DNA of 64,000 nt. Source: Candidatus Omnitrophota bacterium. GTDB lineage: Bacteria > Omnitrophota > Gorgyraeia > Zapsychrales > JANLHA01. Numbering within the stretch: the stretch's first letter is position 1; each line of letters opens with the position of its first letter. The position numbers were made by a program, and so were the translations under genes. Below are positions 5,251-39,057 of the stretch, one piece after another. The stretch spans positions 51,434 through 115,433 of the forward strand of contig JAKQKX010000020.1 in NCBI GenBank assembly GCA_029560465.1, written 5' to 3'. Below the pieces are notes generated by a model. That model was not told where the DNA came from and did not search any database. It saw only the letters and a list, made by a program, of their open reading frames with translations.

Positions 5251-6471
5251 CTAAACATTGACTTCTCCCCACGTCCAGAAATCCCGGGCCAACATATCTC
5301 TGTCTAAATCAACATCCTTACCCACCCTGTGAATTTTAATATAATCCCCGGCCGGACGGACCTCAATCTGATTCCGGAAATAGCAATTCAGATAATAACA
5401 CATCCCTGCCGGGTCATCTTCCCGTTTATAATTCACGAAATTTTTCCTGACACGATGCATGCCGTCAAAAAACCATTTATCAAAACCCAGCCAAGTGGGG
5501 AGAAACCCCCAAATCGGCTCCAGGGCTGTTCCGGAAAAAGGGATGTCCAGAACGTCATAAAGACGGCGCGCTTCCAGTTTCGCCGAAAATTTTTCCAGGA
5601 ACGTCCGGCTGACCAAATGCTGACACGTACAACCAAACCATTCCAAAGCATTGTCTTTATGAAAAAGCACCCTGTCTTTCTCTATAAATTCCGGGATGAC
5701 TTTCCTCAAAGGACGCCGGTACGTATTTTCATAAACAACTCTTCCAAATAACGGGAATTCACCTAAATGGCGTAAAGAACGAAAACTGTAATATATCTTC
5801 TGTAATCCTGGAGTAATAACATCGGGGACATGATCTTGTGTAATAGAATGACTCTCTTTACTCCAAGCTAAGACAAGTTTTTTAAATTCTAAATCCCGAC
5901 AAAACACATCATACGCCTCTCTAATTTTTTCATCATGGTAAAAGTCCATTTCTGTCGGCGCTGGTTTTCGTGTATTATATTTAAAAAAAATCCCTTGGGG
6001 GATCCATCGTTTTTCATGTCCTGAAGAGAGGAAATGGATGTTATACCCTCTCAAAAAATCTAAGACTGCCGATAATGATTGATTACGATTTAACAATGTT
6101 CCTTCTTGAAACATGAAAACATAATCATAGGCCTCCCATTTCCTTGTACGAATAAATTTATACCACGCGCCGGAATCCAAGGCATGGTCATTTTCAAAAT
6201 GCATTTCCGTCACGGTTTTACCTTTCATCTGTCGAAGGATATTTAAAACGCGCTCATCCGCCGGGCTAAGCTGAACGTTAACCCCGTATTTTTCCGCCAA
6301 TCGAAAATATGGTGCGTAAGCAGGCTTTGCATAACATTCGCCACCCCCATTTTGAAAAAGGACAAAAATATCATAATCCTGAAAATCCTGCAAAGCCAAC
6401 GTCAACAGCGTTGACATGATAAGCCAGGGTTTATGATGACAGCATAACGCTATGGCCACGCGCGCGCTCAT
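5251..6471 (-). CDS. Hypothetical protein within the glycan locus (possible glycosyltransferase-like enzyme)
   Basis: Long ORF co-directional with its neighbours. The likely start MSARVAIALCCHH overlaps the upstream stop by 4 bp (ATGA). No motif recognised. Confidence 0.4.
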   Translation of the reverse strand: MSARVAIALCCHHKPWLIMSTLLTLALQDFQDYDIFVLFQNGGGECYAKPAYAPYFRLAEKYGVNVQLSPADERVLNILRQMKGKTVTEMHFENDHALDSGAWYKFIRTRKWEAYDYVFMFQEGTLLNRNQSLSAVLDFLRGYNIHFLSSGHEKRWIPQGIFFKYNTRKPAPTEMDFYHDEKIREAYDVFCRDLEFKKLVLAWSKESHSITQDHVPDVITPGLQKIYYSFRSLRHLGEFPLFGRVVYENTYRRPLRKVIPEFIEKDRVLFHKDNALEWFGCTCQHLVSRTFLEKFSAKLEARRLYDVLDIPFSGTALEPIWGFLPTWLGFDKWFFDGMHRVRKNFVNYKREDDPAGMCYYLNCYFRNQIEVRPAGDYIKIHRVGKDVDLDRDMLARDFWTWGEVNV

Positions 6472-7826
6472 GCGGCTTTCTCCTTTCTGGGCCTTTTCCG
6501 AACTGCGGTTTTCACCGCGTCCCAGACGCGCCGGCTGCACCGGCCGTCTCCATGCCCCATATAACTCCGGATAAATTCCTGTTTTTTTCCCCGGTTCATC
6601 TCAAACCTTTTTAAATGCATTTGCGGAAGCCGCTCAATCACATCCTCGATCTCCCAGGTCTCAATGACACCGGGGTAATTAAACTGGGAGCCTTCTTCCG
6701 CGGAAAACCAGAAGCGTTGCGCCTCATCAATAAAGAACTCCCTGGGTAAATTAATATTCAAACAGTACACCCCCGCGTAAATAGCGGTCAAAGAGGCCAG
6801 GCTGTAATACATGACGCACATACGGCTCACGGTCAGCAGTTCTTTTAATATAGGCGGGTTCTGCTGTGTTTCATCATCCCAGACAACCAGATCAGCGCAT
6901 TCCTTCACATAGTCCGCAACCGGGAATTTCATGCGCGGCTTCACCACCAGGTGCAAATTGTTCCGGCGGGAGAACCCCCGGATCGCCTGAAACACTTTCG
7001 CTTCATTCATACCCTGCGCCAAAAATCTCCGGCTTAGAGGATCCTGCATAACGCGCAACAAATTCCAACTCTTTTGTATAAAATCTTTAATAAGATAATT
7101 TTTCTTATCATGAGCATAGGAACCATCCGGGGCTGTCGCCGTATTCGCATAAAGCCCGCAGAACGCCCGCTCCCAGGCGGAGGACCGGTTCCGGTTGCAA
7201 TACGGGAACGGCAGATAAAGCAGAACATCTTTGTCCGGCGGCAGCCCGTATTTCGCCCGCACGGCGTCCGGATTAATGGTCTTAAACGCATCAAATTCCG
7301 CGTTCCCGGAGACAACGATGCGGGTATTATCCGGATAGAGATAATCCGTGTATCCCGGATGAAAATTTTTCAAAAATGCTTTTCCTTTTTCCGCGTAAAT
7401 CTCACTATAAACCAGAAACAGTTCTTTATTCCGTCGTTTCTTTAAAAACCCCAGTTTGGGTATATGAAAAAAGTTGTCCGGCCCGGTCATCAGCGTCACC
7501 CAGGTAAACGGGAATTCATCTAAAGAAGCGTCCGGGAGAGAAAACTTAGAAGGACAAATAGAGACTACTGCGTCAATCGTTTTGGCCTCACGCAATTTTT
7601 TATCCAAATCCTCCGGGCCTTCGAACATAATTCCAGTCGGCCGACATAATCCCGGAAAATCGGGAATATGTTCGATATACGGGAAAGAGAAGCTCTTTCT
7701 TCCCGTCCGGGGGGCGCTGTAATCATGCCAGCATTCCACGCTATAGCCCCGCCGTAACGCTTCCTGAATGACCGGCGTGTAATAACGGTAATAATTCGTC
7801 CTATAGACTAAAAATACGACCCGCAT
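6468..7826 (-). CDS. Putative capsule/teichoic-type glycosyl- or glycerophosphotransferase-like protein
   Basis: 452-aa soluble protein in the glycan locus with weak resemblance to the Capsule_synth / Glyphos_transf families. Assignment is by context only. Confidence 0.35.
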   Translation of the reverse strand: MRVVFLVYRTNYYRYYTPVIQEALRRGYSVECWHDYSAPRTGRKSFSFPYIEHIPDFPGLCRPTGIMFEGPEDLDKKLREAKTIDAVVSICPSKFSLPDASLDEFPFTWVTLMTGPDNFFHIPKLGFLKKRRNKELFLVYSEIYAEKGKAFLKNFHPGYTDYLYPDNTRIVVSGNAEFDAFKTINPDAVRAKYGLPPDKDVLLYLPFPYCNRNRSSAWERAFCGLYANTATAPDGSYAHDKKNYLIKDFIQKSWNLLRVMQDPLSRRFLAQGMNEAKVFQAIRGFSRRNNLHLVVKPRMKFPVADYVKECADLVVWDDETQQNPPILKELLTVSRMCVMYYSLASLTAIYAGVYCLNINLPREFFIDEAQRFWFSAEEGSQFNYPGVIETWEIEDVIERLPQMHLKRFEMNRGKKQEFIRSYMGHGDGRCSRRVWDAVKTAVRKRPRKEKAA

Positions 7827-23812: not shown

Positions 23813-24790
23813 TCAGCGGGCCATCCCCGCCGGACGCCCCCCATCCCGGGCGCTGAGCTCTTCAATATATTTCCGTAGGGAATTTTTCATCCTTCGCGTT
23901 ATCTTATAACCATCGACCTTCTTGAGGATCTCTTCTTGCGTACGCCCTTTTTTGTAAAGATTCTTCAGGACACCCTCAAAAACCGCCTTAAAACCGTAAC
24001 GGCCGATGCCTTTCGAAATCACGACTAAAAGGCCCAGGACCCCCAGCCCTCCGATCAACCCCAATGGGCCGCCGAGCCAGGCCAGCCCTTCGACAACAGC
24101 CGCGGCTCCGGCCACGCCGCTTATCTGCACCGCCACAACAAGCACAAGGGCCGGGATCCCCAACTGTGAAATCCTGGCGGTCAGTTCATCATATTTCCAG
24201 TTCTCTGCGTCACGGGCCGCTTCTTTAATATTCCCCGGGACACGGCCGACGGCATAAGCCCCGATCACGGCCGTATCCTTCACCCTTCCCGATCCGCTGC
24301 GTACGCCGTCCACCAGCTTATCTTTCACCGCGGTCCCGGCCCGCAACGGCATGTTCACAAAAGCCTTGGTCCCATCCAGGGCCGAACGGCCCAATTTTTT
24401 CCAAAACCCGAGCGCTTCGTTCATCCGGGTGATATACAATTCCAACAGGAATCTCAAAAGAAATACCGTCAACATGTACGACAAAAAACCATTCAGGAAC
24501 AGCGCCATGTTCGTCTTTAAATATTGCGCCTGCGGATACACCGCGGTGATTTTACCGGAAAGGGTCGTGAAATAATCAAACAAAATCCAGAACAAGAACA
24601 CCGCGTACGCCAGAGCCGCTTTCACAATAAGGATCCTGGCCCTGGGCCCTTTTTTCCGGACATCCGCCGGCGCCTCCCGGTCTTCCCGGGTAAGGCGGTT
24701 GTATCGGACGCGGACCGTCTCCAGCAGAAGGACAGAAACGATAAAATACAAAATTGTTTCTTTATTTTTCTTTAACCCGGAAAAAAACAT
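23813..24790 (-). CDS. Hypothetical integral membrane protein
   Basis: Several predicted TM helices, including a glycine-rich hydrophobic C-terminal region. Co-directional with the helicase/nuclease pair. Confidence 0.45.
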   Translation of the reverse strand: MFFSGLKKNKETILYFIVSVLLLETVRVRYNRLTREDREAPADVRKKGPRARILIVKAALAYAVFLFWILFDYFTTLSGKITAVYPQAQYLKTNMALFLNGFLSYMLTVFLLRFLLELYITRMNEALGFWKKLGRSALDGTKAFVNMPLRAGTAVKDKLVDGVRSGSGRVKDTAVIGAYAVGRVPGNIKEAARDAENWKYDELTARISQLGIPALVLVVAVQISGVAGAAAVVEGLAWLGGPLGLIGGLGVLGLLVVISKGIGRYGFKAVFEGVLKNLYKKGRTQEEILKKVDGYKITRRMKNSLRKYIEELSARDGGRPAGMAR

Positions 24791-24849
24791 TTTCTTCTCC
24801 CCTCCCCAGCCCCACGGCGGCTCCTCCCCTCCCGGGGGCCGAGAAAAAA

Positions 24850-25158
24850 TTACGGCCCTGTCTCCTGCGGACCCATTATCAGCCCTGCCGGGGCCGGGAC
24901 CGGTTTCTTCTGTTCAGCCCAATCATCATAAAGCATCAGTTGAACCGATTTTTTAAAAAATACGTGAGCGAGTGTGTTATTCAGCTGATGCAGGTTCCGC
25001 TGAAATTCTTCATCATCCCAATCACCCTCATCACAAAGGATGTTTAAAACATATTTACCCCCCTCTTCCTTTAACAGTAAGATCCAGGGATGGTCCTGTT
25101 TAAAAATTTCGTTTTCAGAGCAGCTTTGAATGATCTTTTGGACATCGCTCATCGGCAC
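24850..25158 (-). CDS. Hypothetical small acidic protein
   Basis: 102-aa ORF between the helicase and the membrane protein. No motif recognised. Confidence 0.3.
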   Translation of the reverse strand: MPMSDVQKIIQSCSENEIFKQDHPWILLLKEEGGKYVLNILCDEGDWDDEEFQRNLHQLNNTLAHVFFKKSVQLMLYDDWAEQKKPVPAPAGLIMGPQETGP

Positions 25159-25346
25159 CGATTTCGGAAAGTATATTTCATGTTCGGCCTCCCCGAGAAA
25201 TTGGCGCGCCCCACCAAAATAGGGCTGCAGAGACGCATACAGGAATCCCGAAATAAAAAGCGTCCCGATGAAGGTGGACGAATCCCCGGCGGGGAAAATC
25301 TGGCAGTGCTGTTGACAAATTCATCGGCTCCATGGTTCACGGATCT

Positions 25347-26903
25347 CTAAAACAAGCTCATTTGTTCATCCCCGGGCGCGCGTTTCTTGTTCTTCATAAC
25401 GGCCTGTTCATATTCGGCGAGGCCGTCCTCAAAGTCCTTTAAGAAAGGAGACACCTGGGAATGGCATGTCTGTCCGAACAACAAACGTTTTTTAGCCCGT
25501 AAAAGATATAGTCGCTCGCGGGCCCGGGTCATGCCGACGTAAAACAACCGGCGCTCTTCCCGGACTTCGGCCTGAAGCCCCGCCAGGTTAAGCGGCAGCA
25601 AGTTTTCTTCACAGCCCACGATAAACACAACAGGGAATTCCAGCCCTTTGGACGCGTGAAGCGTCATCAAAGACACGCGTTCCGCCGCGGCGCTAAATTC
25701 TTCGTACCGGGAAGGGCACACCGATTCCGGCCCGTCTTCACCGTCTTTCCGTTCTCCCGCGGCATAATAAGGGATCCCCATCCGGTCCAAAGCCTGCTTC
25801 AAAAGTCTTGCTTGCGCCTTCAGCCGGTAAAGAACCGCGATATCACCGAAACTCCGTTCAGCGCCGGTTTCCGCGCCCACCCGGCCGGAATCCTGCGAAA
25901 ACATGCTCGTCCCTCCGACAAGTTTCTCGATCTGGTGGACGACATATTCCGCTTCCGCCTTATCCGTCGCCGCCTCAAAAACCGTTAACTTCCCTGCTCT
26001 GTATAACTGCGCGGTTAAATCCGGGACGACCGCGTCCGCATCGCGGGCCATCACTTGCCCCGAAGCCGCCAAGATCGTCTGGCCGGAGCGGTAATTATCA
26101 CAAAGCGTTACCCGTCGGGCGCCAGGGAAATCATCCGAGAAGCTCTTAAAAAAACGTTGATCCGACCCCCGGAACCCGTAGATCGCCTGGTTCGGGTCCC
26201 CGATCGCGGTAATGCCGCCCTTCTCCCCCACCCAAAGCATTAAAAAAGCGTGCTGGACGGGATTCACGTCCTGATATTCATCCACAAAGATTTCAGGGAT
26301 ATCCGCCCGCAGATCCGAAAGGACAGCCGGATGTTCCTTCAAAAAATAAAGCGTTTCGCATAACAGGTCATCGAAATCCAGCAAACCTCTCTGCCGAAGC
26401 TGAGCGTTGTAAAACGCCACGTCATCGGGGACCGGCCCGGAAAAAACTATGGCCTTCCAACGGGACATCGCATCCATCCTCTCCCGGAGCTTCCTATCGG
26501 ATTCCCCGGGCCAGAGCGAACGGCTGACGCCTAAGGCCTGATCCGGATCCACGCAGCGAAATCCCTCCGGGAGCCCGCTCAAAGGCCCGGCGTCCTTGAG
26601 GATATTCAGGCAGACAGAGTGAAAAGTGCCCGTCACTAGCCTGGGCATGAGCGACTCGGCCCCAGGTGAACGCGCGATGCGCATCTTTATTTCTTCAGCG
26701 GCTTTTTGGGTGAATGTGATCGCGCAAAATTTCTTCTTAGGGCTGGTTTGCCGTAACCGGAACATTAACCTGTAGGTGAGGGTGTGCGTCTTGCCGGTCC
26801 CCGGCCCGGCCACAATTAAGAGGCGCGCCCCGGGCTCGGTTATCGCAGCCCATTGGGCGGGATTCACGTCATGGGGTCGGTCAAGGTCCGCCATACAGGT
26901 CAC
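25347..26903 (-). CDS. UvrD/PcrA/Rep-family SF1 DNA helicase (compact, 518 aa)
   Basis: Motif I LLIVAGPGTGKTHT, motif II FVDEYQD, LYVGMTRA. Confidence 0.85.
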   Translation of the reverse strand: MTCMADLDRPHDVNPAQWAAITEPGARLLIVAGPGTGKTHTLTYRLMFRLRQTSPKKKFCAITFTQKAAEEIKMRIARSPGAESLMPRLVTGTFHSVCLNILKDAGPLSGLPEGFRCVDPDQALGVSRSLWPGESDRKLRERMDAMSRWKAIVFSGPVPDDVAFYNAQLRQRGLLDFDDLLCETLYFLKEHPAVLSDLRADIPEIFVDEYQDVNPVQHAFLMLWVGEKGGITAIGDPNQAIYGFRGSDQRFFKSFSDDFPGARRVTLCDNYRSGQTILAASGQVMARDADAVVPDLTAQLYRAGKLTVFEAATDKAEAEYVVHQIEKLVGGTSMFSQDSGRVGAETGAERSFGDIAVLYRLKAQARLLKQALDRMGIPYYAAGERKDGEDGPESVCPSRYEEFSAAAERVSLMTLHASKGLEFPVVFIVGCEENLLPLNLAGLQAEVREERRLFYVGMTRARERLYLLRAKKRLLFGQTCHSQVSPFLKDFEDGLAEYEQAVMKNKKRAPGDEQMSLF

Positions 26904-28189
26904 CTAAAGAGGGTCATCTGCTGGTCAATCGTGTCTCGTTCATCATCGGAGAAAATATGCACCGTTCCATATTCCCCATCATAACCGGCCGCGATCCGCA
27001 CCCGCCCCTCCCTGACCCGGCGGACGCCCTCCGCGATAAGCGTCCCGCTGACTTTCTGAATATCCGCGACCGGGATATCCCGCAAAATCGCCATTTCATT
27101 TCCGAGTTTTGAGAGCATATCCAGATAAGCGGCCTGCACGGCCTTGGAGTTCACGCCCAGGGAGCGGGCTTCCGCGACTATTTCCGGCAGAGGGATCAAC
27201 CTGACAAAATCGCGGGCGTTGGGGGACCGCCGGCCTTCCGGATGATCGGCCAGCTCTTCCACGCGGGCCATGACCCCCACGGTCACCGGTTTCCCGCACA
27301 CCGGACACAACCCCTGATACTGTCCTGTTTCCCTGGGATGCAACCGCGCGTGGCACTGCCGGTGCCCGTCGAAATGATATTTCCCCTCTTCCGGGAAGAA
27401 TTCGACTGTGCCAACTAAATTTTCATGAAAAGAGTCTTTCAGGGCTTTATAAATTCCGGGGTAAGAAAAATCGGATTGAAAAACCGTGCATTCCCGGCCC
27501 AGCTTGGCCGGAGAATGCGCGTCCGAAGAAGACACTAGGACATACGGGTCCAACTGGCTCAAGCGCCAGTTCATCGGCGGGTCGGAAGAAAGCCCGGTTT
27601 CGACGGCAAAAATATGTTTGGAAAGGTCACCGAAACAATCTTCCATCCGGTCAAAACCGCTTTTGGAGCCTAAAGCCGAGAACCATGGCGTCCATATGTG
27701 CGCCGGAACCAAAAAGCTGGTCGGATCGGCCTCCAGGACAATCTCAAGAAGGTCCCGGGAATCCAGGCCCAGGATAGGCCGTCCGTCCGAACGGATGTTG
27801 CCGATAGCGTCCAACTGTTTCTGAATTTTTTCTCCGGCACTTAAATGGGGGGCAAAGACCACATTATGGACCTTGCGGACCTTATCCATGCGTTTATAAA
27901 TATTCGATATCTCCGTCGAAAGGATAAACCGGACTTCGCCCTGGCACGCCGCCGGCACACGGGATAACATCGGCCGGGCGAGGTCCGGACGCAGTGCGTA
28001 CAAGCCCTCTTGCGCCGGGACAAGTTTTTCCCGCAACTCTTTGGCCCACCCCGGGTGCACGAAATCTCCGGTGCTGACCACGTGAACGCCCTTCATCTGC
28101 GCCCAAACGTATAAATGCTCCAGGTTCAGGTCTTTGCTGGTGGCCCGGGAATAATAAGAATGAATATGCAGGTCCGCGTAAAAGTTCAT
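26900..28189 (-). CDS. PHP-domain nuclease of the EndoQ (endonuclease Q) / TIGR00375 family
   Basis: N-terminal ADLHIHSYYSRATSKDL...VVSTGDFVHPGW and a C-terminal Zn-finger CPVCGKPVTVG match the EndoQ architecture. The stop overlaps the helicase start (ATGA). Confidence 0.7.
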   Translation of the reverse strand: MNFYADLHIHSYYSRATSKDLNLEHLYVWAQMKGVHVVSTGDFVHPGWAKELREKLVPAQEGLYALRPDLARPMLSRVPAACQGEVRFILSTEISNIYKRMDKVRKVHNVVFAPHLSAGEKIQKQLDAIGNIRSDGRPILGLDSRDLLEIVLEADPTSFLVPAHIWTPWFSALGSKSGFDRMEDCFGDLSKHIFAVETGLSSDPPMNWRLSQLDPYVLVSSSDAHSPAKLGRECTVFQSDFSYPGIYKALKDSFHENLVGTVEFFPEEGKYHFDGHRQCHARLHPRETGQYQGLCPVCGKPVTVGVMARVEELADHPEGRRSPNARDFVRLIPLPEIVAEARSLGVNSKAVQAAYLDMLSKLGNEMAILRDIPVADIQKVSGTLIAEGVRRVREGRVRIAAGYDGEYGTVHIFSDDERDTIDQQMTLFR

Positions 28190-28241: not shown

Positions 28242-30077
28242 TCATCCTTCCTGAAAGGGCTCTTGGTCCTGATCCCGGCACAAACACCCCTGCTGTGCGA
28301 TACGGCTGGCAAACAACAACAGCAATGGCGGAGTCGCGTGCAGAAAAAGGCGGGGAAAAACCTCCGGGGAGATATCCGATAAGCTTTCAAGAGGCGTGCC
28401 CAGATGGGCCACCCAAACAAATATTACCATCCCGGCCGATACCAGCCCCAAAAAAACTTCGGGTTCAAGCCACCGGGATCTTTTACGAAACACAAAGATG
28501 TACAAACCCAAAATCAGCGCATAGACCGACATATTGTTTGAACAAAAATTCTTAATGTTAATCAAAAAAAGCTGCAGGGCCTTCAGGGCTGAAACCCCTT
28601 CCTTCAAATGCGTTAACGTCGCCCCCTCCTGACCAGAGACCCATCGCATCCAGCCTAAAGGCAATCCGATGGACAAAAAAACAGCCCATAACCAGGCCCC
28701 AGCCCGTTCTGACATCAAGGTCCTCCTAAAAAGCACCACCATCGTCACGCCGAGAACGCCCGTGGCGGCCATCCCTTCCAGTTTGCTCAAATTCAACCCT
28801 GTCATCAAGATCAACGCCAGCCACAAGTAACTCTTCCGCGTTTTATCATTCATCCACGCCAGCATAACGGTTAAAACGCCTCCCCAAAACGCGAGAAAAA
28901 GGTTTTCCGCATTGGCAAAAGTAAAATGTACGTACCACCAGGGCTTTGTAAAATCATGAAAAGCGGAAACGATGTAAAACAAAAGGACGAAATAACGCGA
29001 CGCCGGTTTTAACCCCAGAATTTGTAAAGATTTTGAAACCTGAATCACAAACGAGAGGAAACAAAAGGCTGATGTCCATTTCGCCAATTCATCAGGCATC
29101 CCGCCCAGCAAGGCGAACTGGGAGGCGATATGAAGGGGCCATAACAGCGGATAAGAATTCAAATGCGTGTCTTGAAAATTCCACTGCTGATAATAATACA
29201 TCGTTTTCGATTTTAATATCCAATGCGACATCCCGTCCCAGTCAAAAACGCCGGTCGAAACGGTGATAAAAAAAACTCCCGCCGCGGCCGCGACAACCAG
29301 GCCGCCTAAAACCGGCGCGGCGCATCCCTCTCTCCGGTTTTGACCGATGGGGGCCCCCGGCCCTCCTGGCACGGGAAAACCCGGCCGGCGGGATAGCCCG
29401 ATCAACAAAAACCCGAGCGCCGCCCATGTCCCCAAAACAACACCGCGGGAAAGATTGGCCCCGAGCATCATGAAGATCCAAAGAACGGCGGTGGAAAACA
29501 GCAATCCCAGGAGATACGCCGTGGCGTAATACCAGAGGCGCCCCCATTCTTGCCATGCGACACCCATCGCCCGCAGCATAAAAACGCCTATCAAAATGTT
29601 ATACCCCAGGCAGAAGAGCGCTCCGATCAGGACAATCGGCAAGGGGGGGGAGGCGGAAGAAACGGGGACCAGCGCCCCGGTCACATGAGGACGGACATAC
29701 AGAGAAACCATGTCCGTGAGCGGGACTTGGATCCACGCCTCCGCCCCACCCGGATTCCGGTTCCTCCCGTCTAAATGGAAATCAGAATTCTCCACGATAC
29801 GGTGGGGAAAAAGGAAATACCGCCAAATAACGTAAGAGAACCCTCTGCTTTTAAAAGGGATGCTCACGTCCGCGCCGGGAGGCAGGATCTCCCGCGCCTT
29901 CAGCGCCGCGCCGGCAAAGGCTTGCTCCCGGCGCAACCGATCATAATCAAAACCACGCCGTGCGAATATCTTCACGGAAATATAAGCTTTTTTCGTGAGA
30001 AACCAACCCCCGGAGAGAGTCAGGCAAAAAACAGGAAGGATCAAACATAATAAGGACAATTGGATTCGAGATTTCAT
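28242..30077 (-). CDS. Large polytopic membrane protein of unknown function (possible GT-C-like)
   Basis: 611 aa with at least 12 hydrophobic segments. No catalytic motif recognised. Confidence 0.45.
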   Translation of the reverse strand: MKSRIQLSLLCLILPVFCLTLSGGWFLTKKAYISVKIFARRGFDYDRLRREQAFAGAALKAREILPPGADVSIPFKSRGFSYVIWRYFLFPHRIVENSDFHLDGRNRNPGGAEAWIQVPLTDMVSLYVRPHVTGALVPVSSASPPLPIVLIGALFCLGYNILIGVFMLRAMGVAWQEWGRLWYYATAYLLGLLFSTAVLWIFMMLGANLSRGVVLGTWAALGFLLIGLSRRPGFPVPGGPGAPIGQNRREGCAAPVLGGLVVAAAAGVFFITVSTGVFDWDGMSHWILKSKTMYYYQQWNFQDTHLNSYPLLWPLHIASQFALLGGMPDELAKWTSAFCFLSFVIQVSKSLQILGLKPASRYFVLLFYIVSAFHDFTKPWWYVHFTFANAENLFLAFWGGVLTVMLAWMNDKTRKSYLWLALILMTGLNLSKLEGMAATGVLGVTMVVLFRRTLMSERAGAWLWAVFLSIGLPLGWMRWVSGQEGATLTHLKEGVSALKALQLFLINIKNFCSNNMSVYALILGLYIFVFRKRSRWLEPEVFLGLVSAGMVIFVWVAHLGTPLESLSDISPEVFPRLFLHATPPLLLLFASRIAQQGCLCRDQDQEPFQEG

Positions 30078-34941: not shown

Positions 34942-37900
34942 TCATGGGGCCGCGTCGTAACCAAGGACAGGGCTCAACCACTTTTCCAGCTCACGCACCG
35001 GCATGCCTTTTCTTCTGGCAAGGTCTTCGACCTGGTCAAGGGCTATTTTCCCAAGCCAGAAATATTTTGATTCCGGGTGGGAAAAATAGAACCCGCAGAC
35101 AGAGGAGGCGGGGACCATGGCAAAATTTTCTGTTAACCGGATCCCGGTGGCCTGCTCCGCATTTAACAGGCCGAACAACAATGCTTTCTCCGTGTGATCC
35201 GGGCAAGCAGGGTACCCGGGGGCGGGACGAATGCCTCGATAACGGCACTGAAACAATTCATCGTTTGTCAGGGTCTCCCTGGCATCATACCCCCAGTATT
35301 TTTTCCGGACCAGCTCATGCATACGCTCGGCAAAGGCTTCCGCCAGGCGATCGGACAACGCTTTAACCAAAATCCCGTGATAGGAATCGTGATCCTTCTC
35401 ATACTTTTCCGCGAGATCGGCCGTGCCAAACCCCGCGCTCACCGCGAACCCGCCCAAATAATCTTTTCGCCCCGTCGCCCGGGGAGCGATAAAGTCCGAA
35501 AGGGCGTAATACGGGCGGTTATCATATTTCACAACCTGCTGCCGCAAAGCGTGAAAGACCGTTAAGACCTCCTCACGCCTCTCATCTTTATAAACCTCTA
35601 TGTCATCCCCGGCGCTGTTTGCCGGGAAGAACCCCACCACCGCCCTGGCCATCAAAGACTTCTGACACACGATTTCATCCAGCAGCCGCTGTGCATCCGC
35701 GTAAAGCCTGCGGGCCTCCGCCCCCTGTTGGGGGTCATCCAGGATCTTAGGGAAATGCCCTTTCAATTCCCAGGCCATAAAGAAAGGCGACCAGTCAATT
35801 TTTTCCCGGATCTCCGAGAGGTCAAAATGATCAAAAACGCGGGTGCCTAAAAACGCCGGCGGCGTGAGGGGCAACTGCGACCAATCAGTTTTGAGTCCTC
35901 TCCCTCGGGCTTCTTCCAAAGTTAAAAACTTCGTTTCACTCCGGCGCCTGTCGAACTCTTCCCGGATCACCCGCTGTTCCGCCTTGATCTGCTCCGTCAC
36001 GGCGGCTCTTTGATCCGCGTTCAAAAGTTGCCGGCTCAGCTGCACGCACCGGGACGCGTCTTTGATATGGATTACCGGCCCGCTGTAACAGGGCGCGATC
36101 TTGACGGCCGTGTGCTGCGGCGAGGTCGTCGCTCCGCCGATCAAAATCGGGACCGTTAACCCGGCCTTCCCCATTTCCCGGGCGACATGAACCATTTCCT
36201 CCAACGACGGCGTGATCAATCCGCTTAACCCCACCATGTCCACGTTTTCCTGTATCGCGGCCGCGACGATCTTTTCAGCAGAGACCATCACGCCCAGGTC
36301 CAAGACTTCAAAATGATTGCACGCCAAAACCACACTGACGATATTTTTCCCGATATCGTGCACATCGCCTTTCACGGTGGCCAGCAAAATTTTCCCCTGC
36401 CGGTGCGCGGCTTGCCCTCTTTTTTCTTTTTCGATAAACGGCGTTAAATACGCCACGGATTTTTTCATCACCCGGGCGCTTTTAACGACCTGTGGCAAAA
36501 ACATTTTCCCGGAACCGAACAATTCCCCCACGGCACTCATCCCTTTCATAAGCGGGCCTTCAATAATATCCAAAGGCCGCAGGGCGCTCTGGCGCGCTTC
36601 CTCAGTGTCTTCCTCAATGTGCTCCACAAGCCCTTTCACCATAGCGTGAGCAAGCCGCTCTTCAACCGGGAGGCTCCGCCATTCCCGGTCGGCCGTCACA
36701 ACCCGCCCCCCCTGGCTTCTGACCTGTTCGGCAAACGTGACGAGACGCTCTGTCGCGTCCGGCCTTCTGTTAAAAAGCACATCCTCGACATACCCCAACA
36801 AATCCCCAGGGATTGCGTCATAAACGGCAATCATGCCCGCATTCACAATCCCCATGTCCATCCCCGCCTGAATCGCGTGATACAAGAACGCCGCGTGCAT
36901 CGCTTCCCGGACAATGTTATTCCCCCGGAAAGAAAACGAAATATTGCTCACGCCCCCGGAAACCCGGCAATGCGGCAAAGTCTTCTTAATGATACGGGTC
37001 GCCTCTATAAAATCCAAGGCGTAATTATTATGCTCTTCCATGCCGGTCGCAACGGCAAAAACATTGGGGTCAAAAATAATATCCTGCGGGGGGAACCCAA
37101 CCTCCTGCGTTAAAATACGGTACGCCCTCGTGCAGACCTCCACTTTCCGGGCCTTCGTGTCCGCCTGCCCGCGCTCATCAAATGCCATCACAACCACGGC
37201 CGCGCCGAATTTCTTCAACACCGCCGCCTGTCTCTTAAAAACCTCTTCGCCTTCTTTCAGGGATATGGAATTGACGATCGATTTGCCCTGAAGACATTTC
37301 AGCCCGGCTTCAATAACCGGCCAACGGGACGAATCAATCATGACAGGAACCCGGGCGATGTCCGGCTCACTGGCGACAAGATTAAGGAATCTCACCATCG
37401 CTTTTTGCGAATCCAGCATGGCCTCATCCATATTCACGTCGATCACCTGGGCTCCGGCCTCCACCTGCTGGCGGGCCACAGATAACGCGTCTTCATATTG
37501 CTCCCTTTTGATCAGATTCGCGAATTTCTGGGAACCGGCGACATTCGTCCTCTCGCCGATATTGATAAAATTAGCCTCTGGGCGGACGACCAGCGCCTCC
37601 AATCCACTGAAACAGGTTTGAACCGGGAGATGAGGAAGGACACGCGGCTTAAACGGAGACACGGCCTGGCGAATCGCCCGGATATATTCCGGGGTGGTTC
37701 CACAGCAGCCGCCCACGATGTTCACATACCCTTCTTTCGCAAAATCAGCGACCAGCTTGGCCATCTCCAAAGGCCCCTGGTCAAACCCGCCAAACCCGTC
37801 CGGCAACCCCGCGTTAGGATAACAACTGATGTAACACGGCGCCAACCGGGACAATTCCGCGATATAGGGCCGCAATTTATCCGCGCCCAGGGAACAATTG

Positions 37901-38676
37901 AGCCCCACGGACAAAGGCTTGGCATGCGTCACGGAAATCCAGAACGCCTCCAGGGTCTGCCCGGAGAACATCCGGCCGCTGGCATCGGCAATCGTCCCGG
38001 AAATCATAACCGGAAGCCGGCGCCCCGCCCTTTCAAAAACGCCCTCGATCGCATAAAGGGCCGCCTTGCTATTAAGCGTGTCAAATATCGTCTCTATCAA
38101 AAGAAAATCCACCCCTCCCTCCATGAGCCCGCGGACCTGTTCGGCGTACGCTGCCGCCAGCTGGTCAAAGGTGACCGCCCGGGAGCCGGGGTCATTGACA
38201 TCCGTGGACATGGACGCCGTACGGTTCGTCGGGCCGATAGAACCGGCCACGAAACGGGGCTGTGTGGGACCTTCACGGGTTGCGTCATCCGCGACCCTGC
38301 GGGCGATCCTGGCGGCCGCAACATTCAATTCATACGCCTTCTCTTCCAGCTTGTAATCAGCCAGACTGATCGCATTGGAGCCGAAAGTGTTTGTCTCAAT
38401 AATATCCGCGCCCGCCGCAAGGTACGCCCGGTGAATCTCCTCAATAATCTGCGGTTGGGTCAAAGACAGGACGTCGTTATTCCGCCTTAAATCCACCGGG
38501 TGATCCGCAAAAACTTTGCCCCGGGCCGCCTTTTCGTCCAGATTATATTCCTGAACCATGGTGCCCATGGCCCCGTCTAAAATCAGGATCCGCTCCCCAA
38601 GGAGCTTAATAATCGGATGGGATAAACATGTTTGATGCATAGCATTCACCATAGTGGATTCCTTCTTAAAAGTCAA
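34942..38676 (-). CDS. metH: Cobalamin-dependent methionine synthase
   Basis: 1244 aa with homocysteine-binding, pterin-binding, B12-binding ([10 protein letters not shown]) and AdoMet-activation domains in the canonical order. Confidence 0.95.
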
Positions 38677-38964: not shown

Positions 38965-39057
38965 ATCATTTATTCGGCAGCCGGGCTTTCCTGCTAGGAT
39001 CCTTGGCTTTGCGTCCCCGCTTTACAACGGGTTTGCTTTTTCGCTAAATGAACGTTT
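38921..39057 (-). ncRNA. Candidate small non-coding RNA (~135 nt) bounded by a TTGCAA-N17-TATATT promoter (39092..39064, minus strand) and the terminator above; identity unknown
   Basis: No ORF; promoter-like and terminator elements in the correct orientation. There is no protein gene on this strand between cinA and metH. Confidence 0.25.

Follow-up and report, generated by a model that had tools for sequence, protein, structure and literature searches.

An EndoQ-family nuclease gene and its helicase neighbour

We analysed a window of 64,000 nucleotides (nt) from a Candidatus Omnitrophota bacterium (assembly GCA_029560465.1, contig JAKQKX010000020.1), focusing on an EndoQ-family endonuclease gene and the UvrD-like helicase gene that follows it. 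They belong to a group of four open reading frames (ORFs) on the minus strand, whose limits in the first-pass annotation (26900-28189, 25347-26903, 24850-25158 and 23813-24790) were exactly those that we found. The nuclease gene (26900..28189, minus strand) encodes a protein of 429 amino acids (aa) with a PHP catalytic domain, a zinc finger, a C-terminal domain made of helices, and a disordered tail. The helicase gene (25347..26894, minus strand) encodes 515 aa of the superfamily 1A (SF1A) type, with domains 1A, 1B and 2A only. The last two ORFs, a small acidic one and one for a polytopic membrane protein, lie outside the conserved unit and are treated below with the other neighbours.

The nuclease and helicase genes had been described as overlapping by ATGA, with a helicase of 518 aa. 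Reading the sequence directly gave a different picture. The junction (26892..26905, minus strand) is AGGTGAcctgtATG, i.e., CTC TTT AGG TGA, then CCTGT, then ATG GCG: a Shine-Dalgarno sequence AGGTGA (26905-26900) holds the EndoQ stop codon TGA (26902-26900), and a 5-nt spacer separates it from the helicase ATG (26894-26892). A length of 518 aa is reached only by reading from a GTG at 26903, which would yield a GTGA overlap. We placed the start at the ATG at 26894 because of the Shine-Dalgarno spacing, because the NCBI deposit HOY09963.1 ('ATP-dependent helicase') is the 515-aa product from this same ATG, and because L086, an 89%-identical relative, also has a 5-nt gap between the two genes. 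The prediction of tight translational coupling thus holds at the sequence level, without an overlap. Scans for promoters and terminators between and after the two genes gave nothing decisive, and an Rfam search of the locus found no RNA element.

The nuclease is an EndoQ homologue, as had been proposed from its DLHIHS PHP motif (residues 6-11) and its CPVCG zinc-finger motif (residues 295-299), both of which are present. A phmmer search against the Protein Data Bank (PDB) aligned residues 5-414 with residues 5-384 of Pyrococcus furiosus EndoQ (PfuEndoQ, 5zb8; E 2.3e-50, 34% identity). An AlphaFold2 (AF2) model built on 31 homologues (predicted local distance difference test, pLDDT, 81; predicted template modelling score, pTM, 0.83) gave 5zb8 and 7k30 as its top Foldseek matches in the PDB, with E from 7e-32 to 5e-29 and TM from 0.78 to 0.86. 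The next PHP protein, 2anu, came far behind (E 4e-5, TMq 0.32), and a better fit to the histidinol-phosphatase or PolX subfamilies of PHP proteins was not found.

Conservation of individual residues agrees with the fold. The seven PHP metal ligands are invariant in our alignments (H8, H10, E93, H108, H164, D223 and H225, corresponding to H8, H10, E76, H84, H139, D193 and H195 in Pfu), and so are T167, E197, G199, L200 and S201 of the lesion pocket and steric gate (Pfu T142, E167, G169, L170 and S171) and the wedge residue W169 (Pfu W144). H164 and D223 also count among the pocket residues (Pfu H139 and D193), and the steric gate is formed by the equivalents of H139, G169 and S171. The roles of these metal-ligand, pocket, gate and wedge residues come from work on PfuEndoQ (PMC5961232, PMC8307549). 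Pfu N191 is replaced by Ser in the window EndoQ, at a position where main-chain atoms alone contribute. In the zinc finger (H276-x2-C279...C295-x2-C298) the three Cys are invariant, and H276, a His where Pfu has its first Cys, is conserved to at least 90%. From its sequence, we conclude that the EndoQ family, broadly defined, includes the window nuclease. This agrees with the databases, where close homologues from Candidatus Omnitrophota carry the NCBI name 'endonuclease Q family protein' and the Pfam label PF27218 MJ0043_C; our own Pfam search, with a copy older than PF27218, found no match for the EndoQ protein. Compared with PfuEndoQ, the EndoQs of the helicase-linked bacterial clade are longer by an insert of about 25 residues, at residues ~66-82 and 97-103 (~27881-27994, minus strand), which forms a helix and a long beta-hairpin in the AF2 model. 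This insert could be a contact surface for the helicase.

The compact superfamily 1 (SF1) helicase was likewise confirmed, with Pfam matches to UvrD-helicase (E 9.9e-54) and UvrD_C (E 1.3e-36). Motifs I, Ia, II, III, V and VI are all intact (GPGTGKT, TFTQKAA, DEYQD for motif II, GDPNQAIYGFR, TLHASKGLEF and YVGMTRA), so the protein has the SF1A core of UvrD and PcrA with all motifs in common. Its scores against the NCBIfam equivalog models, however, fall below every cut-off (pcrA 303 against 911, uvrD 267 against 1144, rep 279 against 951), and by this measure it is UvrD-like and not an orthologue of UvrD, PcrA or Rep. Domain boundaries were taken from a HMMER alignment to Deinococcus radiodurans UvrD (DrUvrD), in which window residues 9-378 match 12-383 and residues 397-491 match 555-650. 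The 171 residues of domain 2B (DrUvrD 384-554) have no counterpart: 18 residues (aa 379-396; 25707..25760, minus strand) span the gap. The C-terminal extension (Tudor region) of UvrD is missing as well. A single-sequence AF2 model of the helicase (pLDDT 34, pTM 0.24) was set aside.

An engineered SF1A helicase with 2B deleted, Rep-delta-2B, has reportedly been studied before (Cheng 2002, Brendza 2005), and the window helicase may be regarded as its natural equivalent, with 1A, 1B and 2A kept and 2B reduced to a short loop. This state is specific to a lineage. Relatives in which nuclease and helicase are fused (see below) have 93-218 aa at the 2B position, which argues that the 2B-less helicase belongs to part of Omnitrophota. 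Within this phylum both kinds are encoded, since another member (L005) has a 661-aa helicase that keeps an insert of the size of 2B. Yet another Omnitrophota lineage (L002, L003 and L004) has a shorter EndoQ-linked helicase of 426 aa, 34% identical to that of the window.

A PHP nuclease next to a UvrD-like helicase might also be read as an enzyme of DNA ends or forks in the manner of AddAB or RecBCD, in which the PHP domain would serve as a general exo- or endonuclease. UvrD-like helicase-nuclease fusions do underlie AddA, RecB and AdnAB, some PHP domains are 3'-5' exonucleases, and the window helicase gives partial NCBIfam matches to addA and recB. These matches are far below the cut-offs, however, and the pair has neither a RecB-family PD-(D/E)xK nuclease domain nor a second subunit. 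The homology to EndoQ extends over the full length, including the zinc-finger and C-terminal DNA-binding domains, and the lesion-pocket residues and the steric-gate residues against T and A are all kept. We therefore consider this reading very improbable.

Fused and split forms across bacteria and their clamp-type motifs

The first-pass annotation had described EndoQ as a mainly archaeal enzyme with a few bacterial homologues, a picture that is outdated: a scan of one genome per species, with the EndoQ alignment as query, returned at least 453 confirmed relatives. The best 80 of these are 55-70% identical to the window EndoQ and come from Omnitrophota, KSB1, Zixibacteria, Latescibacterota, Gemmatimonadota, Calditrichota, Fibrobacterota, Chloroflexota, Spirochaetia, Bacteroidota, Myxococcales, Desulfobacteraceae, Planctomycetota and Peregrinibacteria. 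Together with four loci from exact-protein look-ups they make up a set of 84 loci, whose architecture we established by tblastn and ORF tracing.

In 54 of the 84 loci, spread over more than 12 phyla, EndoQ and helicase form a single ORF of 1058-1242 aa (median 1145), with an N-terminal EndoQ, a disordered low-complexity linker and a C-terminal UvrD-like helicase. In 11 further loci the open frame runs past the EndoQ domain to the end of the contig. The pairing of nuclease and helicase, which the first-pass annotation had asked to see conserved in relatives, is therefore not only conserved but present in one polypeptide in most phyla (54 plus 11 of 84). The EndoQ ORF ends at about 430-450 aa in 17 loci. 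Fourteen of them are in or beside the Omnitrophota clade of a neighbour-joining tree (L020 being the one beside it), and Myxococcales, Desulfobacteraceae and Peregrinibacteria contribute one each. Of the 17, 10 have the helicase gene immediately behind EndoQ, two have it after inserted genes, and three lie on contigs that end too soon to show it. Spacing between the two genes in the split relatives goes from an overlap of 1-4 nt to a gap of about 150 nt. Where genes are inserted, in two loci of the Omnitrophota clade, they are a 291-aa protein that looks secreted or outer-membrane-like (L005, 7314-8189) and several small ORFs (L022, 6161-7371).

Protein databases give a consistent view. An exhaustive search of 1.84 billion representative proteins yielded, at E<=1e-30, 1082 clusters; among the best 150, lengths of 1000-1250 aa are nearly universal. 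The fusions are labelled only as 'UvrD-helicase domain-containing protein' or 'ATP-dependent helicase'. Some stand-alone EndoQs of 428-430 aa (P0031, P0060 and P0097) are called 'DNA helicase II / PcrA' or 'DNA helicase UvrD' in JGI and NCBI records, labels that were probably carried over from the fusions.

The neighbour-joining tree, a rough one without support values and with Brevibacillus and Pyrococcus as outgroups, groups the sequences largely by phylum. The Omnitrophota split forms, except L020, make up one clade amid fused clades, and stand-alone or split forms (L084, L080 and L077) are found at the base. For the Omnitrophota pair, this topology is suggestive, and only suggestive, of an origin by fission of a fusion.

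That two unrelated housekeeping genes came to be adjacent by chance is refuted by the at least 54 loci, drawn from more than 12 phyla, in which one ORF encodes both, and by adjacency across different contexts; we give this explanation practically no weight. Since the two proteins are fused in other phyla, and since the split forms stay tightly adjacent in unrelated genomic contexts, we are highly confident that the EndoQ and helicase genes of the window are one functional unit, homologous to the fusions.

The two proteins also resemble each other in their C-termini. The window EndoQ ends in DQ-QMTLF-R, with the pentapeptide Q424-M-T-L-F428 encoded at 26906..26920 (minus strand), and the helicase ends in DE-QMSLF, encoded at 25350..25364 (minus strand) and followed by the stop codon. 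Both are predicted motifs of the type that binds the beta clamp, for which the bacterial consensus is QL(S/D)LF, usually at the C-terminus (PMC9690074). Across the loci, 71 out of 81 cases have the pattern Q..[LFIM][FL] at a fixed distance, about 15 residues, beyond the G[YF]DGxYG anchor with which the EndoQ domain closes; in the fusions this is where the low-complexity linker begins. The pattern Q[LMIV].[LFM][FL] occurs within the last 14 residues of 57 out of 65 helicase or fusion C-termini, again across phyla. As a background, the bodies of the EndoQ proteins (33,715 residues) contain six matches to the first pattern and two to the second. All of 31 split EndoQs have Q424, and F428 is conserved in at least 90% of them; the AF2 model predicts disorder for residues 422-429 (pLDDT <50). 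On these patterns, both proteins carry pentapeptides of the beta-clamp-binding type, kept at both positions across phyla.

Other members show the motifs in varied form. In the Omnitrophota lineage with the 426-aa helicase (e.g., L002, 9287-10567), the helicase still ends in QMQLF but the EndoQ in QMAIV, a degenerate motif. The Desulfobacteraceae metagenome-assembled genome L080 encodes a stand-alone EndoQ of 451 aa (6001-7356) that retains the motif, as QKTLF, ahead of a basic tail, KKKPHQKKRKGLRN; the next gene there encodes 344 aa ending in a DnaJ-like segment.

A precedent for such tails exists. In archaeal EndoQ a C-terminal PCNA-interacting peptide (PIP) box binds PCNA with an apparent KD of 55 nM, and cleavage is stimulated (PMC5961232). 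The bacterial tails appear, by analogy, to parallel this PCNA-binding tail. Similarity to the archaeal enzymes (P. furiosus PF1551 and Thermococcus kodakarensis TK0887; structures 5ZB8 and 7K30-33) goes further, comprising the same three-domain layout, metal ligands, pocket and wedge Trp, and a disordered C-terminal tail with a sliding-clamp-binding motif. Yet the archaeal tail holds a PIP box, whereas the bacterial clade has a QxxLF clamp motif instead, and the archaeal enzyme has no helicase, whereas that of the bacterial clade is fused or coupled to a UvrD-like one. The insert of about 25 aa, the replacement of the first zinc-finger Cys by His and a score under the TIGR00375 cut-off also set the bacterial clade apart.

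Genomic neighbours and the question of defence

The two genes downstream of the helicase had been proposed to complete a four-gene module. The 325-aa product of one (23813..24790, minus strand) is indeed a polytopic membrane protein, with at least four hydrophobic segments, but it is specific to its lineage: its homologues form only eight clusters, all from close Omnitrophota relatives and none with a Pfam domain, and its gene follows the helicase only in L001, L085, L086 and L087. PADLOC matches of this protein to LeoBC and BnzA (E ~0.002) were discarded as noise from its hydrophobic segments. The small acidic ORF (100-102 aa; 24850..25158, minus strand) had no match in Pfam, NCBIfam or PADLOC, and the closest syntenic relatives lack it: L086 has a 78-nt gap in its place, L001 has nothing and L085 has an unrelated gene of 194 aa. 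Its homologues form three clusters only, one identical and two 58% identical, and for this reason it is probably a real gene, with a very narrow distribution. When we clustered 492 flanking ORFs, no partner recurred across phyla and the only signal was the synteny of genome lineages. A four-gene module is therefore unsupported, since no gene family recurs beside the EndoQ-helicase unit from one phylum to the next.

The wider surroundings in the window are metH, mlaEFD, an AsmA-like gene, dsbD, a 611-aa membrane protein, MTHFR, methyltransferases and an epimerase, the assignment of mlaE being made by synteny with L001; the pair in L002 is flanked by leuS and comEA/comEC. The gene for the 611-aa polytopic membrane protein (28242-30077, minus strand), which has no Pfam domain, is upstream of EndoQ by 52 nt. 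Its synteny extends to L001, L085 and L086 (597-609 aa) but not beyond this lineage. Further away, we observed a c-di-GMP-I riboswitch aptamer (38973-39047, minus strand; Rfam RF01051, 61.9 bits, E 1e-9) about 300 nt upstream of the gene for a 1244-aa B12-dependent methionine synthase (34942-38676, minus strand), an unusual gene for this riboswitch.

These surroundings bear on the idea, also raised in the first-pass annotation, that the pair is an anti-phage nuclease-helicase system, one that would destroy DNA containing uracil or other non-canonical bases. A nuclease with an SF1 helicase is a common defence architecture, and an antiviral role of Bacillus EndoQ has been suggested, as a review notes (PMC8307549). 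The closest parallel is Gabija, in which a UvrD-like helicase of about 500 aa (GajB) also stands beside a nuclease (GajA), and the window helicase does match the PADLOC profiles of GajB (E 2e-75). This match reflects generic UvrD similarity, however, since UvrD and PcrA in the PDB score far better. GajA-type nucleases belong to the OLD/TOPRIM family; here EndoQ takes that place, no GajA-like partner was found, and the nuclease gave no PADLOC match.

Distribution argues in the same direction. The neighbours are housekeeping genes that vary between phyla, with no recurrent defence genes and no defence island. Identity of 55-70% across phyla and a tree that is largely phylum-wise are unlike the patchy pattern of defence genes. 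No relatives were present in 50,697 phage records or in 2.9 million viral contigs, and plasmids yielded a single match, a stand-alone Brevibacillus homologue on a non-mobilisable megaplasmid. Finally, clamp motifs at the C-terminus typify replication and repair proteins, and were among the features that separate the pair from Gabija. Genomic context, absence from phages and viruses, conservation across phyla and the clamp motifs thus favour a role in core repair, and we regard a defence function as improbable.

A proposed clamp-tethered repair enzyme and its meaning

We propose, with moderate confidence, that the pair is a clamp-tethered repair enzyme that first incises and then unwinds. EndoQ and the helicase of the window would be the two-subunit counterpart of an enzyme that in bacteria mostly consists of one polypeptide. 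EndoQ would flip a deaminated or abasic nucleotide, i.e., deoxyuridine (dU), deoxyinosine (dI) or an apurinic/apyrimidinic (AP) site, into its pocket and nick immediately 5' of it, as the conservation of its catalytic and pocket residues leads us to infer. This nick would leave a 3'-OH and a 5'-phosphate end bearing the lesion. The SF1A helicase, moving 3'-to-5', would then load at the nick on the intact strand, peel off the lesion-bearing 5' end and probably also release EndoQ from the nicked product. Repair would be completed by a 5' nuclease together with a ligase and a polymerase bound to the clamp. Throughout, the dimeric beta clamp, with its two clefts, might hold both subunits on DNA through their motifs, so that in the split form the clamp would replace the covalent linker of the fusion. 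With its autoinhibitory 2B domain lost, the window helicase would be controlled by recruitment and not by 2B rotation, and would be active once recruited.

This order of events has a parallel in UvrD, which unwinds from the nick after incision by MutL or UvrC, turning over the nickase. The window helicase differs from UvrD and PcrA in that it is no orthologue, has no 2B and, in most phyla, has a counterpart that is fused to the nickase itself. Clamp motifs would not be exceptional in such a setting either, since MutL and MutS likewise use them to reach the beta clamp (PMC9690074). The analysis shows the homology, the conservation of catalytic, pocket and helicase residues and of the motifs, the fusion in other phyla and the genomic context; which substrates are cut, binding to the clamp, the choice of strand for helicase loading and the sequence of steps are the parts of this proposal that we infer.

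Several observations weigh against this proposal. The pentapeptides are short linear motifs, for which clamp binding is a prediction only. Bacterial Pol I can already displace strands and cut flaps, so that it is not evident why a dedicated helicase would be needed. Two of the 17 short-EndoQ loci, L006 and L080, have no helicase within at least 2.3 kb downstream of EndoQ (in L080, none within 5.3 kb). The Bacillus EndoQs, the only characterised bacterial type, are stand-alone proteins. The window EndoQ reaches 178.2 bits against the NCBIfam model TIGR00375, the profile suggested for checking its identity, and remains below the curated cut-off of 326.6. This model was built on the archaeal-type family, and from the low score we conclude that the window EndoQ belongs to a divergent bacterial subfamily and is not the archaeal-type equivalog.

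A last objection concerns the order of the two activities. PfuEndoQ cuts uracil (U) and hypoxanthine (Hx) in single-stranded DNA (ssDNA) more efficiently than in any duplex context (PMC11354406), and because of this preference the helicase could act before incision. It would then scan clamp-marked, newly replicated DNA and feed ssDNA to EndoQ, which would cut at dU or dI. A flexible linker, as in the covalent fusions, would suit a motor with a sensor in tow, and the clamp motifs would put such an enzyme behind replication forks. Cutting unwound ssDNA, on the other hand, risks fork breaks, and the known nickase partners, UvrD with UvrC or MutL, act after incision. The sequence holds nothing that separates the two orders. 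On balance we judge a helicase-first enzyme unlikely, although clearly less so than the defence or DNA-end readings, and keep incision followed by unwinding as our preferred reading.

Part of this was already known, namely EndoQ itself, including its bacterial form from Bacillus. The literature presents EndoQ as an archaeal enzyme for which 'a limited number' of bacterial homologues exist, and it does not settle what follows incision. Among bacterial types, activity on dU, dI and AP sites has been demonstrated only for Bacillus EndoQ (B. pumilus and B. subtilis; Shiraishi et al. 2017, as cited in PMC5961232). The one Bacillales homologue that we examined (Brevibacillus, 393 aa) is only about 29% identical to the window EndoQ and stands alone: its gene neighbour encodes a NUDIX hydrolase, no helicase is adjacent, and its C-terminus lacks a clamp motif. 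According to PMC5961232, Shiraishi et al. 2017 divided EndoQ proteins into three families 'based on the domain organization'. In the searchable literature we found no paper on an EndoQ-helicase fusion, on its split form or on bacterial EndoQ and the beta clamp, and one of the families of Shiraishi et al. 2017 may depict a helicase-bearing form.

The EndoQ family is thus broad in bacteria, with at least 453 species-level matches in genomes and 1082 protein clusters at E<=1e-30. Its dominant bacterial form is fused to a helicase, which names the likely next step after incision, and the link between archaeal EndoQ and PCNA appears to be rebuilt with bacterial motifs on nuclease and helicase alike. 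More tentatively, and at slightly less than even odds, we suggest that EndoQ-UvrD is a hitherto uncharacterised, widespread bacterial repair machine that uses its two motifs to dock on the clamp and acts as one unit in cutting at the lesion and in removing the damaged strand by its helicase. If so, bacteria would have a glycosylase-independent, clamp-coupled way to remove uracil, hypoxanthine and AP sites, a route analogous to, yet distinct from, archaeal EndoQ-PCNA and MutL-UvrD, and the Omnitrophota form would be a natural 2B-less helicase tied to its nuclease by the clamp alone. These proposals provide testable hypotheses on how bacteria bring alternative excision (nucleotide incision) repair to completion, and the locus offers a natural split and fused pair, together with a natural 2B-deleted SF1A helicase, for mechanistic work.

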